Notes under the pieces: model-generated
What the model was told of the DNA's origin: nothing
Seen by the model: the letters and a program-made list of their open reading frames with translations, nothing else
The model's database searches: none
Position numbers and translations under genes: made by a program
From: a virus
Lineage: Duplodnaviria; Caudoviricetes
Virus record (IMG/VR): IMGVR_UViG_2513237100_000001
Span: 1 to 64,000 of that record
DNA length: 64,000 nucleotides
Reading direction: 5' to 3' (one strand)
Part shown: in pieces, positions 1,311 through 63,331 of the stretch
Layout of the letters: every line of letters starts with the position of its first letter
How positions within the stretch are numbered: the stretch's first letter is position 1

Positions 1311-1866
1311 CCACCCAGCCCGACCGATCCCGTACCGCCCGATTCCTGGACGCCGTCACCCACAGCGGCCCCGGATACGACACCACGCCCAACGCCACGG
1401 CGAGCAACACCACCAGCCGCCTCCACCACCTCCTCGACCGCATGCAACGCGGGGTGCTCCTCCCCGAGGAAGCCGAGCAGCTCGCCGGACTCGTCCGGCT
1501 GCTCCAGGCCCGCGTCACCGACCAGGACGGGGCCGCCAGCGTCACCGTGAGCGCCGTCCGGCTCATGAACGAAGCCGGAACCCAACGCACCACGCCGAGG
1601 CCCGTGTCCGCGAACTGGAGGCCAACACCGCCACGCTCCAGGACGCCCTCGCTGCCGTCACCGGGCAATGCCGCAGTCTCGAAGCAGAGCTCGTTACCGC
1701 ACGCTCCACCATCGACCGGGTACGGGACCTTGCCGGCCGGTACCAGATGTGGCACGAGGGTGGCTGGGCGCCCAGTTCGGCCGCCGATGTTGCCCGCGAG
1801 TACCGGGCCGTCGTTGACGGGCAGGCGGATGGGTCCGGCAACACCCTGCCCGCCGCGTGGAGTTGA
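1307..1866 (+). pseudogene. Coiled-coil hypothetical protein with an apparent 1-bp deletion near 1588
   Basis: Protein-like sequence switches frame from MNEAGTQR to HAEARVRELEANTATLQDAL...AAWS*; could be a sequencing error. Confidence 0.6.
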
Positions 1867-2279
1867 CGCAGTTGAGCCCCGCTCGTTCCGGGGATTCACC
1901 GGTCGGGCGGGGCTGGGGAATGCGAAATGGTGCCGGAATGGTGGCAGGAATACCAGTGGACTAGACCCGTGCTGCGAAACACGCCGCCCCTGAAAGACGG
2001 ATTCGAGTCGTCACCCTATTTCGGTATCCCCGCCACCTTTCCGAACCTTCACAGGATTTCCGCCACGGAACCACCGCATCACCAACGGTAAAGCCATGGC
2101 CAAGAATTCTGTGTGCAAGGCAACCCTGACCGGACTGAACTGCCAGCCAGGACCCCCTGCACCTCCCATCATGCCCCGTCAGCACCCGCGTATCTTCGGG
2201 GAGTTTCCATTAACAAACCGCCCGTCCTGGTTCACAATCTGTGTACCCAACACCGTTCCACCCACGGGGGATTACCCAC

Positions 2280-3122
2280 ATGCACAAGCAAGCCCTGCAC
2301 GACTTCCTCAAAGAACGACGAGCCCGCGTCACCCCAAAATCTGTTGGCCTCCCCGAACCCACCGGCCCAGGACGCCGCACCCCCGGCCTCTCCCAACAAA
2401 ACATCGACCACCTACTCCACTCCAGCGTCCACACCTACTACCGGCTCGAAACCGGCAAAACCCCCCGCGTAAAACCCGACTACCTCCGCGCCCTCGCCCA
2501 ACTCCTCGCACTCAACGAACACGAATGGGTCCTCCTCCACCGATACGCCCTCGAACAAGAACCCCCCGCACCCCTCCACCCCGACGCCGGCTACCTCATC
2601 CCCACCCCATGGCAACGGGCCGTAGACGGCATCACCCGCGACATGGCCTACGTCGGAGACGCAGCCTGGAACGTCGTCGCCTACAACGACCTATGGCGGA
2701 CCATGTTCCCGTCCGGGCAAGTCCCCGCGAACACCATGCGGTGGATGTGCCTGTCCGACGAAGCGCGCACCGTCCTCACCGACTGGGACACCCAATGGGC
2801 GCCCCGCGTCCTCCCCCAACTCCGCGGTGCGGTTGCCATGCGCCGCGACCCCACCCTCCTCCAGATCGAGCAGGACGTCCTCAACGACCCGATCGCCGGC
2901 CCCCTGTACGAAGCCCGCGGTGTCACCCTCCACCCCGACGGCGACGAACGACCCCTTCACCATGCGGCGCACGGGCCCGGTTGGGTCACCATGTGCTCCG
3001 CGACCCCGGAGTCCGCCCCCGGCGCCCGACTGATGATCCTGCTGTTCTCGAAGACGAAGCGCGGGACACCACCCGGCCCCCCTCTCCGGGCTGTTACCCC
3101 TGGTCACATAGGTAACGAATAA
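2280..3122 (+). CDS. MmyB/MltR-family transcription factor (XRE HTH plus PAS-like ligand-binding domain)
   Basis: LHDFLKERRARVTP..GLP..GRRTPGLSQ..YYRLETG N-terminus; AYVGDAAWNVVAYN, NTMRW, DWDTQWA C-terminal signature. Confidence 0.92.
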   Translation: MHKQALHDFLKERRARVTPKSVGLPEPTGPGRRTPGLSQQNIDHLLHSSVHTYYRLETGKTPRVKPDYLRALAQLLALNEHEWVLLHRYALEQEPPAPLHPDAGYLIPTPWQRAVDGITRDMAYVGDAAWNVVAYNDLWRTMFPSGQVPANTMRWMCLSDEARTVLTDWDTQWAPRVLPQLRGAVAMRRDPTLLQIEQDVLNDPIAGPLYEARGVTLHPDGDERPLHHAAHGPGWVTMCSATPESAPGARLMILLFSKTKRGTPPGPPLRAVTPGHIGNE

Positions 3123-3125
3123 CCC

Positions 3126-3165
3126 ACCAGGGGCAGCAATCAGGCCACCACGGGCTATTTTGAGC
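3126..3165 (+). promoter_or_regulatory. PKS promoter: ACCAGGGGCAGCA box followed 17 nt later by TATTTT (-10); inverted box copy at 3092-3104
   Basis: Same 13-mer and spacing as upstream of the portal and lysis genes. Confidence 0.65.
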
Positions 3166-3192
3166 AATCCGTGCCTAGCCCGTGGAGGTCCC

Positions 3193-4239
3193 GTGCCCGC
3201 CCCCGCCTACGTCACCACCCCGCAGGTCACCCTCCCCCCACACAAGATCACCACCAGCGAAATCCTCGACGACATCCGGCACCACCACCCCGACCACCCC
3301 CGGCTCCCCGTCATCCTCCGCGCCATCACCAACAGTGGCGTCACCACCCGCCACTACACCCGGCCCCTCCACTCCCCCACCGTCAACGGCACCGCGGACG
3401 TCCACGAACGCACCCAAGCCGCATTCGACGACGCCCTCGACATGGCCACCCAGGCCGCCGCCCAGGCCCTCACCCACGCCGGGCTCACCCCCGCCGACAT
3501 CGACGCGGTCGTCACATCCCACGCCACCGGCTGGTCCGTCCCCAACCTCGACGTGCACCTCATAGCCCGCCTCGGCCTGAATCCCACCACCCGCCGGCTC
3601 CCCATGACCACACTCGCTTGCGCCGGCGGTGTCCACTCCCTGATCCGCGCCCACGACCACGTCACCGCCCACCCCGACGCCAGGGTGCTGGTGGTGGCGA
3701 CGGAGGCACTGTCGACGTCGTACAACCATGCCGACACCAGCATCCCCAGCATGATCTACAAGGCGTTGTTCGCGGACTCGGCGGCCGCGACCATCGTCAC
3801 CGCGGAACCCCTCCAGCCTGGTCTCCGTATCACCGACACCCTGGAGTACTGGCTCCCTGACAGTCTCGACCGGTACGCGGGGCGCCTCGACACCACGGGC
3901 ATGCACTTCGACTCCACCCGCCAAGCCCCCGCCAGCGCAGCACAAACCATGCCCGCCCTCCGGGAGTGGCTCGGGCCCCGCATCGTCGACTGGGCGGTCA
4001 TCCACCCCGGCGGGCCCAGCATCATCCACGACGTCGCCACGGCTCTCGGCCTCGACGACGTAGACGCACACCACTCCTACGCGTCTCTCGCCGAGTGCGG
4101 CAACCTGGGTGGGGCGTCCGTTCTCGACGTCCTCGCCCGCACCCACACCACCCCGCCCCACGCTGACGCGGTGGGGGTCATGGCCGCGTTCGGGCCGGGC
4201 TTCACCCTGTCCGCGATCCGCGGCACCTGGCACGCCTGA
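3193..4239 (+). CDS. Type III polyketide synthase (PhlD/RppA/germicidin-synthase-like)
   Basis: Cys-His-Asn triad intact (LACAGG, IHPGG, CGNLGGAS); ALFAD; AFGPG; N-terminus PPHKITT...HPDHPRL resembles PhlD; GGAGG RBS. Confidence 0.95.
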   Translation: MPAPAYVTTPQVTLPPHKITTSEILDDIRHHHPDHPRLPVILRAITNSGVTTRHYTRPLHSPTVNGTADVHERTQAAFDDALDMATQAAAQALTHAGLTPADIDAVVTSHATGWSVPNLDVHLIARLGLNPTTRRLPMTTLACAGGVHSLIRAHDHVTAHPDARVLVVATEALSTSYNHADTSIPSMIYKALFADSAAATIVTAEPLQPGLRITDTLEYWLPDSLDRYAGRLDTTGMHFDSTRQAPASAAQTMPALREWLGPRIVDWAVIHPGGPSIIHDVATALGLDDVDAHHSYASLAECGNLGGASVLDVLARTHTTPPHADAVGVMAAFGPGFTLSAIRGTWHA

Positions 4240-4256
4240 GAAACGCGCACGACAAC

Positions 4257-4287
4257 GCCCCCGCCCGGCCGAAGCCGAACGGGGGTG
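4257..4287. terminator. Putative stem-loop between convergent genes
   Basis: CGCCCCCG...CGGGGGTG imperfect hairpin just after the PKS stop. Confidence 0.45.
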
Positions 4288-4396
4288 CAGGCTGCTATGG
4301 GGTGCTGTGCTGCCTTGTCGGGACTGCGGTATGCCGGGGCTCGGGGAGGGGGGACTGCCCTCGGCCGCGGGTCGTCCAGATGCCCGTGCGGGTCGG

Positions 4397-4972
4397 TTAC
4401 CGACTCGACAGGTCCTCACGGGGCGTGCGGTTGCCCTTGCCGGGGCGGGAGTCCAGGGCGTCGCGGACCTCTCCGGAACGGAAGTAGGCCTGCGGGCGCC
4501 CGGACTCCGGGTTCGGGCCGTAGTGGAACGGCTTCACGCCGAGCCGGGACATCGCCTTGGAGGCAGCCTTGGCCGGCTCCTTCGCCGTGGAACGCATCTC
4601 GTCGCGGCCGATGGCCTCCAGCGTCAGCGGGTCGTGGCGCTCGATGATCTCGTCCAGGGAGACGTCTTCCAGGCACCCCGCGATGTCCAGGCCGCCGTAC
4701 TCGTCGGTCGGGTAGTCGTCGAACTCGCCTTCCTCCGGGTGAGCGGGGCCGATGAACTCGTCCCCGCACAGCGACACGTCCGCCGGCAGGGCCCGCTCGA
4801 TCGCGGCCCGGTACGCGCGCTGGATCTCGCCCAGGGCCCCGGACTTCTCCAGCAGCTCCTGCCAGTCGGGGTCCCCGGTGCCGATGTGGTCGGTGACGTC
4901 GGCGTCCGGGCTGGTCGAGAAGGTGCTGACCTTGCTGCTCCAGGTGCCGTAGCTGGCGGTGGTGTAGCTCAT
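4397..4972 (-). CDS. Hypothetical protein with acidic N-domain and probable C-terminal DNA-binding (Xis/MerR-like) region
   Basis: AAGGAG RBS; C-terminal GRPQAYFRSGEVRDALDSRPGKGNRT. Confidence 0.7.
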   Translation of the reverse strand: MSYTTASYGTWSSKVSTFSTSPDADVTDHIGTGDPDWQELLEKSGALGEIQRAYRAAIERALPADVSLCGDEFIGPAHPEEGEFDDYPTDEYGGLDIAGCLEDVSLDEIIERHDPLTLEAIGRDEMRSTAKEPAKAASKAMSRLGVKPFHYGPNPESGRPQAYFRSGEVRDALDSRPGKGNRTPREDLSSR

Positions 4973-5625: not shown

Positions 5626-5994
5626 CTACGTCGAGGCCAGCTCGGTCTCGGGCCGGCAGATCTCGCACGGTTGGATATCCGGTTCCGCCAGGGCGACCAT
5701 GGCGTCCTCGCGGTTGATGAACCCGCCACCGCCCGAGTTGAACAGGGTGCAGTTCCCCCGATGCAGCAGGGCTGTCGCGTTGGAACGCTGCGGTTGGATC
5801 TTCCACAACATTTCAGCCCGCGCCTGCTCCCGGCGGCGCCGCGCTTGTTCCTCCTGCACCTCCAGATCCCGGATACGGCCACGAACCTGCCGCAACTGGT
5901 ACTCCAGCCACTCGGCCAACGCCCGGTTCTTCTCCAGCGGGGTCGGCTCCCGGTACGGCTGGTCGAGCTCGTCAGGCCCCGGCCAGTCAGACAC
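5626..5994 (-). CDS. DUF6233-like small zinc-binding protein
   Basis: LHRGNC...REDAMVAL...PCEICRPETEL; N-terminal coiled coil. Confidence 0.75.
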   Translation of the reverse strand: MSDWPGPDELDQPYREPTPLEKNRALAEWLEYQLRQVRGRIRDLEVQEEQARRRREQARAEMLWKIQPQRSNATALLHRGNCTLFNSGGGGFINREDAMVALAEPDIQPCEICRPETELAST

Positions 5995-6229
5995 CGGTGG
6001 TCTTCTTCGCGGGGAGCAACGCCCGGCAGGCCGGGCAGAGGGGGTTGCCGCCGTGCCCGTACCGGTGGGTGGGCTGTCGGCAGGTGGCACAGGGCCCGGT
6101 CTGGGTACTCATACGCCCAGCGTACGACCGGTACGGGCGGTGACCTGCGGCAACCCCCAGGGCGCACGAAAGCGGCCCGTCGCACCAAAGTTATGTTGCG
6201 CAACACACAACTTCGCTAGAGTGGGACTC

Positions 6230-9268: not shown

Positions 9269-9619
9269 TCAACCCGCTTCACGCCAACCCTGATTCGCCC
9301 CCTCCGGCACAACCACGTCGTCCAGGTTCAGCAACCCCAACCGCAACGCGACCGCGACCGCCTGCGCCCGGTCCCCAACCCGCAGCTTCCGGAACGCGGA
9401 CTGCATCCGAGACGCCACCGCCTCCGCACCAACCCCCAGCGTGTGGGCGATGGCCCGGTTCGTGGCCCCGTTCGCGGCGAGGCGCAGCACGGCTATCTCG
9501 CGGGCGGTGATGTACGTGCGGGCGTCTTTTGGCCGGCGGGCCAGGGTGCGGGTGGGGTTGAGAGAGGCCGTGGGCCCGCCACCCGAAGGCGACGGGCCCA
9601 CGTGGGCAGGGGCGGTCAC
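9269..9619 (-). CDS. Stand-alone LuxR/GerE-family HTH regulator
   Basis: ITAREIAVLRLAANGATNRAIA...FRKLRVGDRAQAVAVALRLGLL. Confidence 0.9.
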   Translation of the reverse strand: MTAPAHVGPSPSGGGPTASLNPTRTLARRPKDARTYITAREIAVLRLAANGATNRAIAHTLGVGAEAVASRMQSAFRKLRVGDRAQAVAVALRLGLLNLDDVVVPEGANQGWREAG

Positions 9620-35837: not shown

Positions 35838-35995
35838 GACTCCACGGTCCCACTGTGCGGGCGGGATGTTGCCCCTGGTGGTCTGTCACGGCGCGGTAAA
35901 CGGGGAGGTGTTCCCCGGTTCTTCGCCAGGAGCGATCCTGCGGCGAGAGGGCGTGGAGTGCATTGGCGGGCGACACGCTGCATAACCCTTGGAAT

Positions 35996-38390: not shown

Positions 38391-38854
38391 GCTGCGTTGC
38401 CTTTCCCAGGGCGGCAAGGCACTGGGGGAACCGAATACTCGGGAACCGTGGCCGCCCACATGATGACCCCGACATGCGAGGTGAGGTACCAGAGCGCAAC
38501 AAACGCGCCCCGCGAATACTCGCCGCTGACGGCAGCAGCAAGATAGGCGACAGCCCACACCGTGGGGGGCAGGAGTGCCGCCACGTAACCGGCCCAGTCA
38601 CGACCGATACGAAGAAACGCGGAACTGACCGTGACCAGCCCCACCACAATCCACAACCACGCCCAGTGCCGCAGCGAACACATAGACGTGAGAAGTCGCA
38701 GACCATGCGCGTCCGGAGGAGCAACGAGGAAGCTGATCCCCCAGCACGTTTTGCCGGCGCCGATGATGAGAAGGAAGACGCCGCGGCGGCCCACACGCTC
38801 ACCCAGACGCCGCAGAGTGTGGCGTAGCGCTCGCAGAGGGGCCGCCGAACCCAT
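38387..38854 (-). CDS. 4-TM lysis-cassette membrane protein
   Basis: GRRG.FLL then four hydrophobic helices. Confidence 0.75.
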   Translation of the reverse strand: MGSAAPLRALRHTLRRLGERVGRRGVFLLIIGAGKTCWGISFLVAPPDAHGLRLLTSMCSLRHWAWLWIVVGLVTVSSAFLRIGRDWAGYVAALLPPTVWAVAYLAAAVSGEYSRGAFVALWYLTSHVGVIMWAATVPEYSVPPVPCRPGKGNAA

Positions 38855-39111
38855 CAGACGCCCTTGGCGAGGCTGGCCGAGTTGGTGACGTCCCGCCACC
38901 GGGCGACAAGCCCCTTCAGCAGGGATGTGGCTGCGGCGACACCGGCAACACCGGCGGCCTGCCACATGCCAATGTCGAACGGCTGGGTGAGAACGAGACC
39001 ACCGACGAACGCCTGGAGGCCGGTGGAGACCACCCGCTCGGCCAGGTCGCGGGCGTAGGTCTTGGCTCCCTTGATGACGGTCTGCGTCTGGGGCAGCAGG
39101 GGGTCGGTCAT
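38854..39111 (-). CDS. Holin (r1t-like)
   Basis: DLAERVVST..QAF; two TMs; directly after the endolysin. Confidence 0.85.
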   Translation of the reverse strand: MTDPLLPQTQTVIKGAKTYARDLAERVVSTGLQAFVGGLVLTQPFDIGMWQAAGVAGVAAATSLLKGLVARWRDVTNSASLAKGV

Positions 39112-39112
39112 G

Positions 39113-40081
39113 TCAGTGCTCCGTTTCCAGGCGTACGGTGACGCCCTTGATGGCGGTCTCGATGCGGGTGATCAGGGCGTCCACGTCCACCGTGGCGTCG
39201 CGGGCGGCCAAGGCTTCGGCGAGGGTGCGGACCGTCGCGGTCACCGCGGCGATCTCGGTCTGGGCCTGCCGGACCCGCACGTGAATGTCGCGGATGTACG
39301 AGTCGGGCGTCCAATGGGTGTTGCCCGGCGCGGCCGTCAACGGCGACTTGAGGATGCCGTCGGTGGTCCAGATCTTCTTGACGTCGTCGGCGGTCAGGGC
39401 CACAGCGACCTCCTTGGTGGGCGTAGTGGGCGTAGTGGGTGCGGGTGCGCCGCCGGGATTCCAGCTGGCGGGGTGCTTGAGCCGCTCGGCGACATCAGCC
39501 CGCAAGCCGGCCATGGCGAACCCGCGGGGGTCGATCTTGTCGCTCGACCACTCCAGGTGACCGATCACGGACTTCGCGGTCCAGCCGTGGGCCCGGCACA
39601 GGGCGGCCTGGACGCGGACGATCGCGTCGTACTGGGCGGCGGGCCAGGGGTCCTTGCCGTCACCGAGGTTCTCGCACTCCCACCCGTAGAACCGGGCGTT
39701 CCCGTCGACCCCGTTGCTGTTGCCCTTGGTGGGCGGCGTGGGTCGGGTGCTGTACGACTCGGCGATCACCTGGTCCAGGACCTTCGGGTCGCCGCCGCCG
39801 GCGTGGTTGGTTCGGCCCCAGCCGACGAGGTGCACCTGACCGTCCTTCGCGATCATGCCGTGGCACAGGGGGCCCGGTAGTCCGGAGTACCCGTCACGGA
39901 CCATGGCGACGGTGGATGCGGTGCCCTTGGTGACGGTGTGGTGGACGATGCTGCCGTTCAGCGGGCCCCAAGCCCCGTGACCGGCCCGGTTGCGGGTGCG
40001 CCAGTTGCCGACCTCGACAACGGTCACGCCCTCGTCGAGCAGCGCCTTGAGGACCGCGGCGGCGGACAGTGGTGTGGCCAT
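39113..40081 (-). CDS. Endolysin, N-acetylmuramoyl-L-alanine amidase (Amidase_2)
   Basis: IVHHT..NHAG..GWECEN..IGHLEW..KIDP. Confidence 0.93.
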   Translation of the reverse strand: MATPLSAAAVLKALLDEGVTVVEVGNWRTRNRAGHGAWGPLNGSIVHHTVTKGTASTVAMVRDGYSGLPGPLCHGMIAKDGQVHLVGWGRTNHAGGGDPKVLDQVIAESYSTRPTPPTKGNSNGVDGNARFYGWECENLGDGKDPWPAAQYDAIVRVQAALCRAHGWTAKSVIGHLEWSSDKIDPRGFAMAGLRADVAERLKHPASWNPGGAPAPTTPTTPTKEVAVALTADDVKKIWTTDGILKSPLTAAPGNTHWTPDSYIRDIHVRVRQAQTEIAAVTATVRTLAEALAARDATVDVDALITRIETAIKGVTVRLETEH

Positions 40082-40083
40082 GG

Positions 40084-40482
40084 TCAGCTTCCCTCCTTCG
40101 GGTTGGGCGTCACCCGCGGCACGTGGAGCTGGTCCCACGCCACCTCGTCCGGGATGCCACTGGTGTCACCGCTGCCCTTGGGGCGCAGCGTGTGCTGGAA
40201 CGCGGCGAACGCCCGCTTGTGACCGTTCGTCCAGTCCGGTCCGGGGCTCTGAGCGGTGCCCCAGTGCCCCTCCTGGAACAGGCGGTAGGCCATGGCCTGG
40301 ACGATCGGGCTGTTGCGGCCGCCGTGGAAGAAGCTGGCGCCCGGGTAGGGCTCGTACAGGGAGTGGTCCGGGGCCGGCGGGGTTTCCGGTGTTGCGGGTG
40401 CCGATGGGGTTTCCCCGGTGTCGGGGGCGTTGTGCTTGGTCGGCGGGCCGTCGTCCGGGTCGGGTTTGGTGGTGCGGGTCAT
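40084..40482 (-). CDS. Stand-alone peptidoglycan-binding protein
   Basis: PYPGASFF..AFAAFQ..SGIPD..WDQL. Confidence 0.8.
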   Translation of the reverse strand: MTRTTKPDPDDGPPTKHNAPDTGETPSAPATPETPPAPDHSLYEPYPGASFFHGGRNSPIVQAMAYRLFQEGHWGTAQSPGPDWTNGHKRAFAAFQHTLRPKGSGDTSGIPDEVAWDQLHVPRVTPNPKEGS

Positions 40483-41423: not shown

Positions 41424-41463
41424 GATCAGCGTACGGGTGTGCGACCCGGATGCTGCCCCTGGT
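41424..41463 (-). promoter_or_regulatory. Late-type promoter of the lysis cassette
   Basis: ACCAGGGGCAGCA-N13-CCCGTACGCTGATC, identical boxes at 63292-63331. Confidence 0.75.
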
Positions 41464-61394: not shown

Positions 61395-63257
61395 TCATTC
61401 GTTGCCCCTGGTCGGCTGCTGCCCTTGGTCGGCGGGTACATCCGGCAGGTTCACCGCGGGTGCTTTGTCAACGCTCGGCGCCTTCAGGCCGAGGAAGTCA
61501 GCGACCTCCTGTGTGCTGTTGAGTGCGTCGGCGAGGAAGCGGGCCTGCTCGAACTGGCGGGACTGGATCTGTGCGATCTCCGTCTCGACGTCGTCAATGG
61601 GGAACCCGGCGTCGGTGAGCATTCGCACCCCGGTCTCCAGGGACAGGACTCCCTTCTCCACACCGCTTGCTACCTGCTCCAGGACGGCCGCCTTGTCGGT
61701 CGGGGTGTACGGGCCGCGGACAAGGAGAGCGTCTTGGGGCGTGATGCCCGCCCAGTCAGGGTGCTGGCCGGCCATGAAGAGGCGCTGCGCAAACTTGAGG
61801 ATGAGGCTTTCTTTGTGTTCGCGGGCCAGGCGCATGCTGCCGATGAGGGAGTCGAGGGGGCCGAGGCTGATCTGCATGGCGAAGCCGGAGGGGACCTCGG
61901 ACGGGCTGAGGGTGCCCAGGGATACGGCGGGAAGCCGGACGATGGTGGAGGCCCGGTCCTTGAGGTCGGCAACGTGGTTGCGGAGCTCGGCCAGGGCCCG
62001 GGACGTGTCGACGGCGCTGAGCTTCCCGTTCTCCCCCAGCTTGAAGACCATGCCGGGGCCAGCTGCGAGTTCCTGCCGCGGGTCGGTAACGCCGGATACG
62101 GCCAGCATCGGCAGGCCAGTCGTGGCGGATGCTCGGGCGGAGTCGGTGTCGGAGCCGGCGAGCTCATCGAACACCTGCAAGGCCTTCGCGAGGGACGACT
62201 GGCCCCAGTGCTCTTCGGCGGGCGGGACCGTGTTGGGGACGTGGATGACCGGGATGAAGTCGATGAGGAGGTCGAGGTGGTCGAGGACTTCACCGTCGGA
62301 CCGGGTGGCGTAGGTGGCGCTGGTGGCGGGAAGGGAGTCGACGTCGATGTTGCCCTTGAGGTCGCCGATGACCCAGGTGGCGTCGGTGAGGTAGCAGGTG
62401 AAGTAGGAGGGTTCGTCGTTCCACGCGTACTGGCGGGCGATGGCCCCGGAGGCGGGGTCGACCATGTCGCCAGGGCTCAAGGTGGGGCCCGCGGGGTCTG
62501 TGGCGTCCGGGTCGGACTCGGGGGTAGGGGGAAGGGCACGGACGGCCCGTGTGCCAGTCTCGTCGACCCCAGCAACGGTCAGGGGACGGATCCAGTCCAG
62601 CTCGTAGGTGATGCGACGCAGGCGGGCTTTCAGGCCGCGCTTCGGGTCCTCGGGGAGCTCCCACGCGAAGTGGACGCGCCGCGGGTACTCGCCGCCGTCG
62701 TCGTCCTCGCCGATGACGGGGAAGTAGAAGCCGGGGTCGGTGACGCGTAGGGTGGGGCGCTTCTTCGCCGGGTCCCACGCCATGCGGTACACGCCGTCTC
62801 CGAGGGCGACGGTCTTACGTTCGCACTGCTGAAGTCGCATGGGGAGCAGCTCGGCCTTCGCCCAGTCCCGCAGGAGGGCCTGGACGCGTTCCGCCGCAGC
62901 GATTGACGCCTCGGCCGCTTCTCCCGCGGTGGACTGCTCTGCCCCGGGGACCACGATCTTCTGGTCTCGGCCGAGGACGTTGGAGACGAGCGTGTCGATG
63001 AACATGCTCGGGTCGCCGAACTCGCGGCGGTCCCGGGCGCCCGCACCATCGACGACCTCTGCGATTTCTGAGGCCTGGTTGTGGTCGTAGGCGGACAGCA
63101 GCTTGTATGCGGCGAGACGCCGTTCGTCTTCGGCGGGCACCCACATGGCCTGCGCTTCGGGGAACGCCCGCCGGTTGGGCATGCCCTGGCTGTCGGAGTA
63201 GACCGGCTTGTAGTTCAGCCAGCTCCATGCGTGGATGGCGATCTGCCTGAGACCCAC
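61395..63257 (-). CDS. Portal protein
   Basis: 620 aa after the terminase; LGDGVY..WD; IPVIHVPN; SGFAM. Confidence 0.88.
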   Translation of the reverse strand: MGLRQIAIHAWSWLNYKPVYSDSQGMPNRRAFPEAQAMWVPAEDERRLAAYKLLSAYDHNQASEIAEVVDGAGARDRREFGDPSMFIDTLVSNVLGRDQKIVVPGAEQSTAGEAAEASIAAAERVQALLRDWAKAELLPMRLQQCERKTVALGDGVYRMAWDPAKKRPTLRVTDPGFYFPVIGEDDDGGEYPRRVHFAWELPEDPKRGLKARLRRITYELDWIRPLTVAGVDETGTRAVRALPPTPESDPDATDPAGPTLSPGDMVDPASGAIARQYAWNDEPSYFTCYLTDATWVIGDLKGNIDVDSLPATSATYATRSDGEVLDHLDLLIDFIPVIHVPNTVPPAEEHWGQSSLAKALQVFDELAGSDTDSARASATTGLPMLAVSGVTDPRQELAAGPGMVFKLGENGKLSAVDTSRALAELRNHVADLKDRASTIVRLPAVSLGTLSPSEVPSGFAMQISLGPLDSLIGSMRLAREHKESLILKFAQRLFMAGQHPDWAGITPQDALLVRGPYTPTDKAAVLEQVASGVEKGVLSLETGVRMLTDAGFPIDDVETEIAQIQSRQFEQARFLADALNSTQEVADFLGLKAPSVDKAPAVNLPDVPADQGQQPTRGNE

Positions 63258-63291: not shown

Positions 63292-63331
63292 GATCAGCGT
63301 ACGGGCGATGCGGTGAGGTGCTGCCCCTGGT
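63292..63331 (-). promoter_or_regulatory. Late-type promoter of the portal operon
   Basis: ACCAGGGGCAGCA-N13-CCCGTACGCTGATC. Confidence 0.75.

Follow-up and report, generated by a model that had tools for sequence, protein, structure and literature searches.

What does a phage gain from a gene for a natural-product enzyme placed beside a gene for a ligand-type regulator? This question is raised by the first 64,000 nt (the window) of the virus record IMGVR_UViG_2513237100_000001, which is 86,042 b long and rated 95% complete. Two tandem genes in it encode a regulator with an XRE-type helix-turn-helix (HTH) and an MmyB-like, PAS-like ligand-binding domain (2280-3122, +) and a polyketide synthase (PKS) of type III (3193-4239, +). 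The initial annotation proposed that the two form a synthase-receptor pair, a non-peptide analogue of arbitrium that controls lysis/lysogeny or lytic timing, and knew of no described phage system of this type. By homology, we identify the pair as a diverged relative of the vioB/vioA cassette, a published two-gene cluster on ~85-kb plasmids. With a probability of roughly three in four, we favor the reading that such a cassette is carried here by a phage-plasmid of the pZL12 family and makes regulated alkyl-α-pyrones as an accessory trait.

The regulator gene is an open reading frame (ORF) that starts with ATG at 2280, stops with TAA at 3120-3122, and encodes 280 aa. Its product carries HTH_31 (residues 9-83; E 2e-8, 34.8 bits against a Pfam cutoff of 27) followed by MLTR_LBD, PF17765 (residues 111-256; E 2.5e-12, 47.6 bits against a cutoff of 26.3), the domain order by which we recognized membership in this family. 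When its AlphaFold model (mean predicted local distance difference test score 82.4) was compared with solved structures using Foldseek, MltR, 3pxp, ranked first (E 6.5e-8, probability 1.00, 281 columns) and PAS domains ranked next; the low template-modeling (TM) score of 0.39 to 3pxp probably comes from a different orientation of the domains. An alignment profile of the regulator also reached 3pxp (E 0.0088), and the single sequence searched against the PDB gave chance matches only. MltR was crystallized together with a fatty acid, and amphiphilic compounds are presumed to be the ligands of the family (PMC3406030).

The PKS gene follows after a spacer of 70 nt. Its likeliest start is GTG at 3193, behind GGAGG at 3184-3188, and its stop is TGA at 4237-4239, giving a protein of 348 aa; third-position GC favors two tandem plus-strand frames, 2214-3122 and 3112-4239 (0.77 and 0.88), in DNA with a GC content of 0.65-0.73. 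The protein matches Chal_sti_synt_N, PF00195 (E 2.8e-20, 73.1 bits against a cutoff of 27), and Chal_sti_synt_C, PF02797 (E 2.3e-10, 41.1 bits against a cutoff of 27). Its best solved relatives are 1u0m (199 bits) and 3v7i (165 bits), and Cys143, His271, and Asn304 align with the catalytic residues of 1u0m, a tetrahydroxynaphthalene (THN) synthase chain. NCBIfam holds no curated equivalog for it, the best model being DpgA, which scored 100 bits where the cutoff is 425. In the alignment, Gly230 occupies the position of Tyr224 in RppA, which is responsible for the choice of the malonyl starter (PMC5898002), and a THN-type product therefore appears unlikely. The same residue aligns with Gly231 in VioA numbering, which is altered in the low-output VioA variant G231L (PMC12113368). 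The gene is best described as coding for a probable alkyl-α-pyrone synthase of the VioA type.

Much of the initial annotation is borne out by these searches. Both genes had been placed correctly among phage genes, which we can name from portal to tail fiber, endolysin, and holin; the regulator is of the XRE-HTH/MmyB type, both domains scoring above the Pfam cutoffs; and the Cys-His-Asn triad of the PKS is intact, being invariant in 13/13 aligned sequences. The view that no tailoring, export, or resistance gene lies nearby also holds, because nine of the ten flanking ORFs have no Pfam family and the tenth belongs to DUF6233.

The claim of novelty fares differently, because by homology the gene pair corresponds to a published two-gene natural-product cluster. 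In Streptomyces somaliensis SCSIO ZH66, the vio cluster is borne by a circular plasmid of ~85 kb and consists only of vioA, for a type III PKS of 350 aa, and vioB, for an XRE-family regulator of 272 aa (Huang 2016, PMC4924298; here and below, what is said of a cited paper refers to the parts of it that were consulted). The PKS gene vioA was identified as responsible for the biosynthesis of violapyrones, which are 3-methyl-4-hydroxy-6-alkyl-α-pyrones with weak activity against methicillin-resistant Staphylococcus aureus, and deletions of flanking ORFs had no obvious effect (PMC4924298). Deletion of vioB raised violapyrone B about eightfold, so vioB acts negatively, and in a wblA deletion mutant vioB was lowered and vioA raised (PMC4924298). 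This result speaks against the role of activator that the initial annotation had given to the regulator. VioA was placed nearest Cpz6, DpyA, and Gcs, and its proposed substrates are β-keto acid starters with methyl- or ethylmalonyl-CoA (CoA, coenzyme A), "similar to that of Gcs" (Hou 2018, PMC5898002). An earlier comparison of the window PKS with germicidin synthase was in this sense chemically apt, as the product of the homologue is a 3-methyl-4-hydroxy-6-alkyl-α-pyrone made in the manner of Gcs (PMC5898002).

VioA is 95% identical to pCQ3.110c, WP_012840496.1 (PMC4924298), and this accession corresponds to the gene at positions 84153-85205 of pCQ3. Directly 5' of it, across the plasmid origin, is an HTH gene, and pCQ3 also carries the capsid of the phage-plasmid family described below. 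The window PKS is 59% identical to WP_012840496.1 by blastp and 59.1% by tblastn; the regulator is 52% identical to that of pCQ3 and 53% to pZL12.99. Another 21 genomes were reported to have vioAB loci, with "most of them" said to be on "a linear plasmid" (PMC5898002). The literature thus already covers the cluster, the fact that it is plasmid-borne, and how widely it has spread. The word "phage" is absent from the consulted parts of both vio papers, PMC4924298 and PMC5898002, and we found no literature joining "MmyB" with "type III polyketide synthase". In the published accounts, as far as they were consulted, the carriers are not treated as one phage-plasmid family and the regulator is not described as MmyB-like.

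The carrier of the window's cassette is such a phage-plasmid. PHROGs in the window include portal (61395-63257), scaffold, decoration, major head, tape-measure, Dit, two minor tail proteins, and a tail fiber, and the lysis module consists of a holin (38854-39111) and an Amidase_2 endolysin (39113-40138), both found with Pfam. No terminal repeats were found in the 86,042-b record. ZL12 (pZL12; 90,435 b) is matched in collinear order by 57 of the 100 crude ORFs of the record, with identities of 96% for ParA, 84% for ParB, and 85% for the FtsK/SpoIIIE-like protein; the ORF upstream of the portal gene is 86% identical to pZL12.67c. Nucleotide similarity to ZL12 is almost nil (142 nt of 8 kb). Because of the collinear ORFs, the partition genes, and the siphovirus virion module, all of which are present and by which we define the family, we assign the record to the pZL12-family phage-plasmids. 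pZL12 itself has been characterized as a plasmid and lytic phage, according to a title cited in PMC4487206. The type III PKS of pSLE1 is 59% identical to pZL12-100, and its neighbors "did not indicate" a cluster (PMC4487206). Published reports already mention the type III PKS genes of pZL12, of pSLE1, and of plasmid prophages, and a phage-borne enzyme of this kind is not new either.

The cassette occupies the same relative place in the record as pZL12.99/100 in ZL12. In three phage-plasmid relatives (loci L020, L021, and L066), it lies beside head genes and not where ZL12 has it, and the cassette has therefore changed place among members of this element family. Both the window (5626-6108, -) and pCQ3 (L095, 1242-1574) have a DUF6233 gene no more than ~2 kb from the PKS gene.

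The distribution of the pair extends well beyond phage-plasmids. The GTDB species set has 121 relatives, and the best 80, which were kept, are all from Streptomyces. IMG/VR holds seven further contigs with the PKS (58-82% identity), six of them 83-92 kb long, and many PKS matches in a large protein collection come from contigs of ~85-99 kb, with further ones from 8-10-Mb chromosomes. We classed a locus as phage-plasmid when its 10-kb flanks shared at least one further gene with the record, and added one (L047) through gene-order clusters. By this rule, 28 of the 89 loci, the window and ZL12 included, are on phage-plasmids and 61 are chromosomal (27 and 61 of the 88 other loci). No phage-plasmid gene was found within 10 kb of any chromosomal locus, and three of these loci are on contigs of ~90 kb by coincidence. 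The chromosomal copies occupy at least five unrelated neighborhoods, for example with a GFO/IDH/MocA oxidoreductase and GNAT; a DUF4032 kinase with TetR, a short-chain dehydrogenase/reductase, and acyltransferase_3; a cold-shock protein and NUDIX; a sigma-factor/DUF6596 protein; or an alpha/beta hydrolase. A system restricted to phages, as expected of an arbitrium-like one, is not what this distribution describes.

The pairing itself is nearly universal. Searched with tblastn, a vioB-type XRE regulator lies directly 5' of the PKS gene and on the same strand, as in the window, in 86/88 other loci, both phage-plasmid and chromosomal; in the two exceptions (L006 and L012), the contig end cuts at the PKS. 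The reverse is not true, because regulator homologues without the PKS exist: close ones are found on other linear plasmids, beside parAB. In two linear plasmids from PLSDB (L093 and L094, 5001-5837 in each), regulator homologues of 53-55% identity without a PKS are each followed by an ORF of 76 aa, with parAB and a primase nearby. PLSDB has the PKS on 36 plasmids, the family capsid on 34, and both on 26. The remaining eight capsid-positive plasmids lack the PKS, and none of them is among the 60 listed of 61 regulator-positive plasmids. Ten PKS-positive plasmids fall under the capsid threshold, and five of these are 238-939 kb in size.

A quick maximum-likelihood tree was built from 89 PKS rows and nine more distant proteins; VioA and the pCQ3 protein were not rows in it. 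The 89 rows split from the nine at a Shimodaira-Hasegawa-like approximate likelihood-ratio test (SH-aLRT) value of 99. The window PKS falls in a deep subclade of seven rows, all from phage-plasmids (SH-aLRT 100), and this separate position of the window's pair, as the tree suggests it, is not in the published vio work as far as consulted. In blastp comparisons, the PKS of pCQ3 shows 75% identity to the clades of ZL12 and of chromosomal context C and 59% to the window. The phage-plasmid label changes at least four times on the tree: contexts C, D, and E are nested in clades rich in phage-plasmids, and a clade of 40 rows, all of them chromosomal, is made up of contexts A and B. The median ratio of nonsynonymous to synonymous substitution rates (dN/dS) is 0.13-0.44 in five groups, which indicates purifying selection, and is highest in the clade of the window (0.34-0.44). 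All PKS matches in phage-plasmids (28/28) are full-length single alignments. The regulator tree recovers three of the five major PKS clades as splits, and the pair therefore travels together. This result, the linkage in 86/88 loci, and the published effect of a homologous regulator deletion on PKS output support the earlier proposal that the two genes are a functional unit. As a separate observation, the top-scoring PKS-like protein in the representative library (P0123) is 4,818 aa long and contains 12 distinct regions resembling a type III PKS, at 28% identity; it could be a giant tandem array or an artefact of assembly or gene calling.

Only the two genes and the ~330 nt preceding the regulator start codon are constant across contexts. 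In 11 loci from eight contexts, these ~330 nt show patchy conservation. The segment at 1950-2209 (+), before the regulator promoter, travels with the cassette in phage-plasmid and chromosomal contexts and is conserved at the DNA level, because tblastx gives matches in all frames. A small divergent gene, a 53-aa ORF at 2011-2172 (-), was rejected as an explanation, since it has no conserved counterpart at that place and the tblastx conservation is all-frame. An RNA element was not supported either: there was no meaningful Rfam score (one chance-level match, E 0.98), and RNAalifold predicted 0 pairs over 11 loci. The putative promoter of the regulator, recognized by its sequence, is a sigma-70-like TTAACA-17 nt-CACAAT at 2210-2238 (+), the single such site in 1700-4500 (1 seen against 0.2 expected), and it aligns with an AT-rich element of the TTTACT/TATTTA type kept in other loci. 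Control by bldA through a TTA codon, as in mmyB, was considered and dropped, a TTA codon occurring in the regulator of two and the PKS of one of the 89 loci.

The promoter of the PKS gene provides the case for a different reading, in which the synthase is wired into the late promoter class of the phage. Production of the pyrone would then coincide with that of virions and lysis proteins, and lysis would set it free, the regulator acting as an extra brake; the pyrone could act on neighboring hyphae, spores, competitors, or other phages. In the window, the promoter-like element before the PKS gene (3126-3161, +) consists of a 13-nt G-box, ACCAGGGGCAGCA (3126-3138), a spacing of 17 nt, and TATTTT (3156-3161). 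The exact 13-mer occurs three times in the window, each time followed by a TAnnnT hexamer at the identical distance of 17 nt. The two other copies, both with TACGCT, lie upstream of the lysis module (41451-41463, -; homologous site in ZL12 and pCQ3) and 62 nt before the portal gene (63319-63331, -; homologous site in ZL12). With up to two mismatches allowed, the window has 13 matches against 2.78 expected, and 0/100 shuffles reach 13. A strict pattern, CAGGGG[CG]A-N19-23-TAnn[TC]T, marks exactly three sites in the 86-kb record and three in the 90-kb ZL12, which are the PKS, lysis, and portal promoters in both. It finds two sites each in 4/5 further IMG/VR relatives, one being the PKS promoter and the second lying on the other strand; in three of the four, the -10 of this second site resembles the late-promoter one. 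The reversed pattern, used as a control, gave 0 matches in these relatives. Three whole host genomes (~28.6 Mb) have nine matches, four of them on phage-plasmid contigs. In pCQ3, the pattern precedes the lysis module and a one-mismatch variant precedes the PKS gene. That the G-box of the PKS promoter is common to the portal and lysis promoters is not in the papers, as far as consulted.

The contrast with chromosomes is marked in raw counts, the strict 8-mer lying within 120 nt of the PKS start at 21/26 phage-plasmid loci against 0/61 chromosomal ones. However, the 8-mer is missing at 5/26 phage-plasmid loci, and the phylogenetic test of the link is underpowered, because the tree offers only four independent phage-plasmid/chromosome contrasts, of which about two agree and none is opposite (sign test p 0.25-1). 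Common to all cassettes are a -10-like TAnnTTG and a G-rich box ~24-26 nt upstream. Because the chromosomal cassettes keep this looser box and the same -10 type with no phage genes near, a host factor may read both boxes. We consider late timing of the PKS doubtful, while holding it to be the best placed of the alternatives. Slightly less credence goes to its fuller form, in which the synthase has been rewired to the late-promoter class so that a germicidin-like pyrone serves as a phage-timed message or weapon, with VioB as a ligand-gated brake; such a pyrone would, for example, block germination or growth of uninfected neighbors or tune their prophages.

Several further observations concern these promoters. 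No sigma factor was found with Pfam among ten early-region ORFs, only RusA, SSB, and a small GerE/LuxR protein. The latter, a HTH protein of 116 aa (9269-9619, -), shares 76.5% identity with pZL12.110c, a degree of conservation uncommon in the early region, and is a candidate reader of the G-box promoters. A G-box copy with two mismatches at 3092-3104 (-) forms an imperfect inverted repeat with 3126-3138 (+), 21 nt apart; the repeat straddles the regulator stop codon and may serve as the stem of a terminator or as a binding site in two halves. Two tandem variants with one and two mismatches lie just before the scaffold gene (61400-61429, -) and a copy with one mismatch at 35867-35879 (-), and the strict pattern may miss some members of the promoter class. 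In several loci, the -10-like hexamer of the PKS is flanked on both sides by short inverted repeats, which differ in sequence; the window, for instance, has CACGG...CCGTG, and ZL12 has a 12-bp palindrome. These repeats may be operators of the regulator, changing together with it, or else 5' hairpins.

The proposal of the initial annotation, a signal made by the synthase and sensed by the regulator to set lysis/lysogeny or lytic timing, is a long shot in our estimation. The invariable pairing of a synthase with a ligand-type regulator would suit it, as would the G-box common to the PKS and late promoters. α-Pyrones are bacterial signals elsewhere (photopyrones, cited in PMC12113368), and silent clusters in other strains became active when a VioA variant was expressed at a low level (PMC12113368). 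However, the homologous regulator lowers the output of the synthase rather than driving autoinduction, in the published deletion at least. A phage-specific decision system is also hard to reconcile with the 61 of 89 loci that are chromosomal, in at least five ordinary contexts, or with the 8/34 capsid-positive plasmids that lack the PKS, none of which is among the 60 listed regulator-positive plasmids. One of the PKS-less plasmids is informative here. pSAM1 keeps a G-box variant, CAGGGGGGAAT, before its portal gene; it is absent from the 60 listed of the 61 regulator-positive plasmids, the one unlisted record leaving a small doubt. The late promoters thus appear to be independent of this regulator, and the G-box as a regulator operator driving late genes is disfavored. 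A k-mer comparison across loci likewise gave no consistent word for an operator shared by the two cassette promoters. Overall, a lysis/lysogeny signalling role is unlikely. It is very improbable that the cassette is a captured chromosomal locus decaying on the element as a passive hitch-hiker without a role, as its frequency in chromosomes and the varying genes that flank it on elements might suggest, because the PKS is intact in 28/28 phage-plasmid loci, dN/dS is below 0.45 in all groups, the cassette is kept in 26/34 family plasmids, and it has the same relative place in the window's record and ZL12 despite protein identity of less than 60%.

In the accessory-trait reading, the PKS would condense fatty-acid-derived β-ketoacyl starters, bound to CoA or to an acyl carrier protein, with methyl- or ethylmalonyl-CoA to give 3-alkyl-4-hydroxy-6-alkyl-α-pyrones, that is, germicidin-like violapyrones. 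The XRE/MmyB-like regulator would be made from its own sigma-70-like promoter and hold the PKS gene down until an amphiphilic ligand relieves it. The cassette is self-contained and mobile, with a conserved place in pZL12-family phage-plasmids and several chromosomal sites, and on the phage-plasmid it would most likely be accessory cargo, providing its carrier strain with a small pyrone that is antibacterial or acts as a signal. The product, the sufficiency of the two genes, and the negative role of the regulator have been demonstrated elsewhere for homologues. Homology, linkage, distribution, purifying selection, and promoter anatomy are established here; what exactly the diverged copy makes, which ligand is sensed, and how host or phage might benefit are inferred.

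Some of the evidence pulls the other way. Identity to the proxies of the characterized pair is only 59% and 52%, and the window PKS belongs to a separate, deep, phage-plasmid-only subclade with the highest dN/dS, so its product may differ in chain length or extender. The alkyl-pyrone product is demonstrated for VioA only and predicted for the window copy, and the repressor role of vioB comes from one deletion in one strain (PMC4924298). Finally, the G-box and spacing shared with late promoters would fit a phage-timed function better than cargo of a lysogen.

From a biological perspective, the plasmids that carry vioAB can now be seen as members of a widespread family of Streptomyces phage-plasmids of ~85-100 kb, about three quarters of whose members in PLSDB (26/34) have kept the cassette. 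On these phage-plasmids, and not in chromosomes, the synthase promoter resembles the portal and lysis promoters. If this likeness means co-expression, a temperate phage family would be timing a burst of a small molecule to coincide with lysis; otherwise, the locus would be an ordinary accessory gene cassette.

Known systems resemble the window's pair to different degrees. Arbitrium is the AimP-AimR system of phage communication. It and the photopyrone system PpyS-PluR have, like the window, a synthase or signal gene beside a ligand-binding regulator; unlike these, the window cassette is not phage-restricted, and any link of its regulator to lysis/lysogeny genes is hypothetical. The MmyB/MltR family (PF17765; 3pxp) has the same XRE helix-turn-helix and PAS-like ligand domain as the window regulator. 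However, MmyB is an activator and the vioB homologue acts negatively, and the Streptomyces coelicolor paralogues are divergent from their targets in 15/16 cases (PMC3406030), whereas the window pair is tandem. Gcs (PDB 3v7i) and RppA (PDB 1u0m) of S. coelicolor are stand-alone bacterial type III PKSs with the same fold and triad, and Gcs makes related alkyl-pyrones (PMC5898002), but both are far more distant from the window PKS than VioA is. pZL12 and pSLE1 belong to the same element family, with collinear genomes and partition and virion genes, and pZL12 has an annotated "type III polyketide synthase" beside a "transcriptional regulator", as in the window; in the consulted parts of their reports, the PKS is given no function and no link to vioAB is made. 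The closest likeness is to vioB-vioA, where two genes only, an XRE-type regulator directly 5' of a type III PKS of ~350 aa, are carried on a plasmid of ~85 kb, with the Gly at VioA position 231 in common and, in pCQ3 as its proxy, the same promoter layout. The window differs in its identity of only 59% (PKS) and 52% (regulator) to the pCQ3 proxies, and in that the carrier, called a plasmid in the papers as far as consulted, is here a phage-plasmid.

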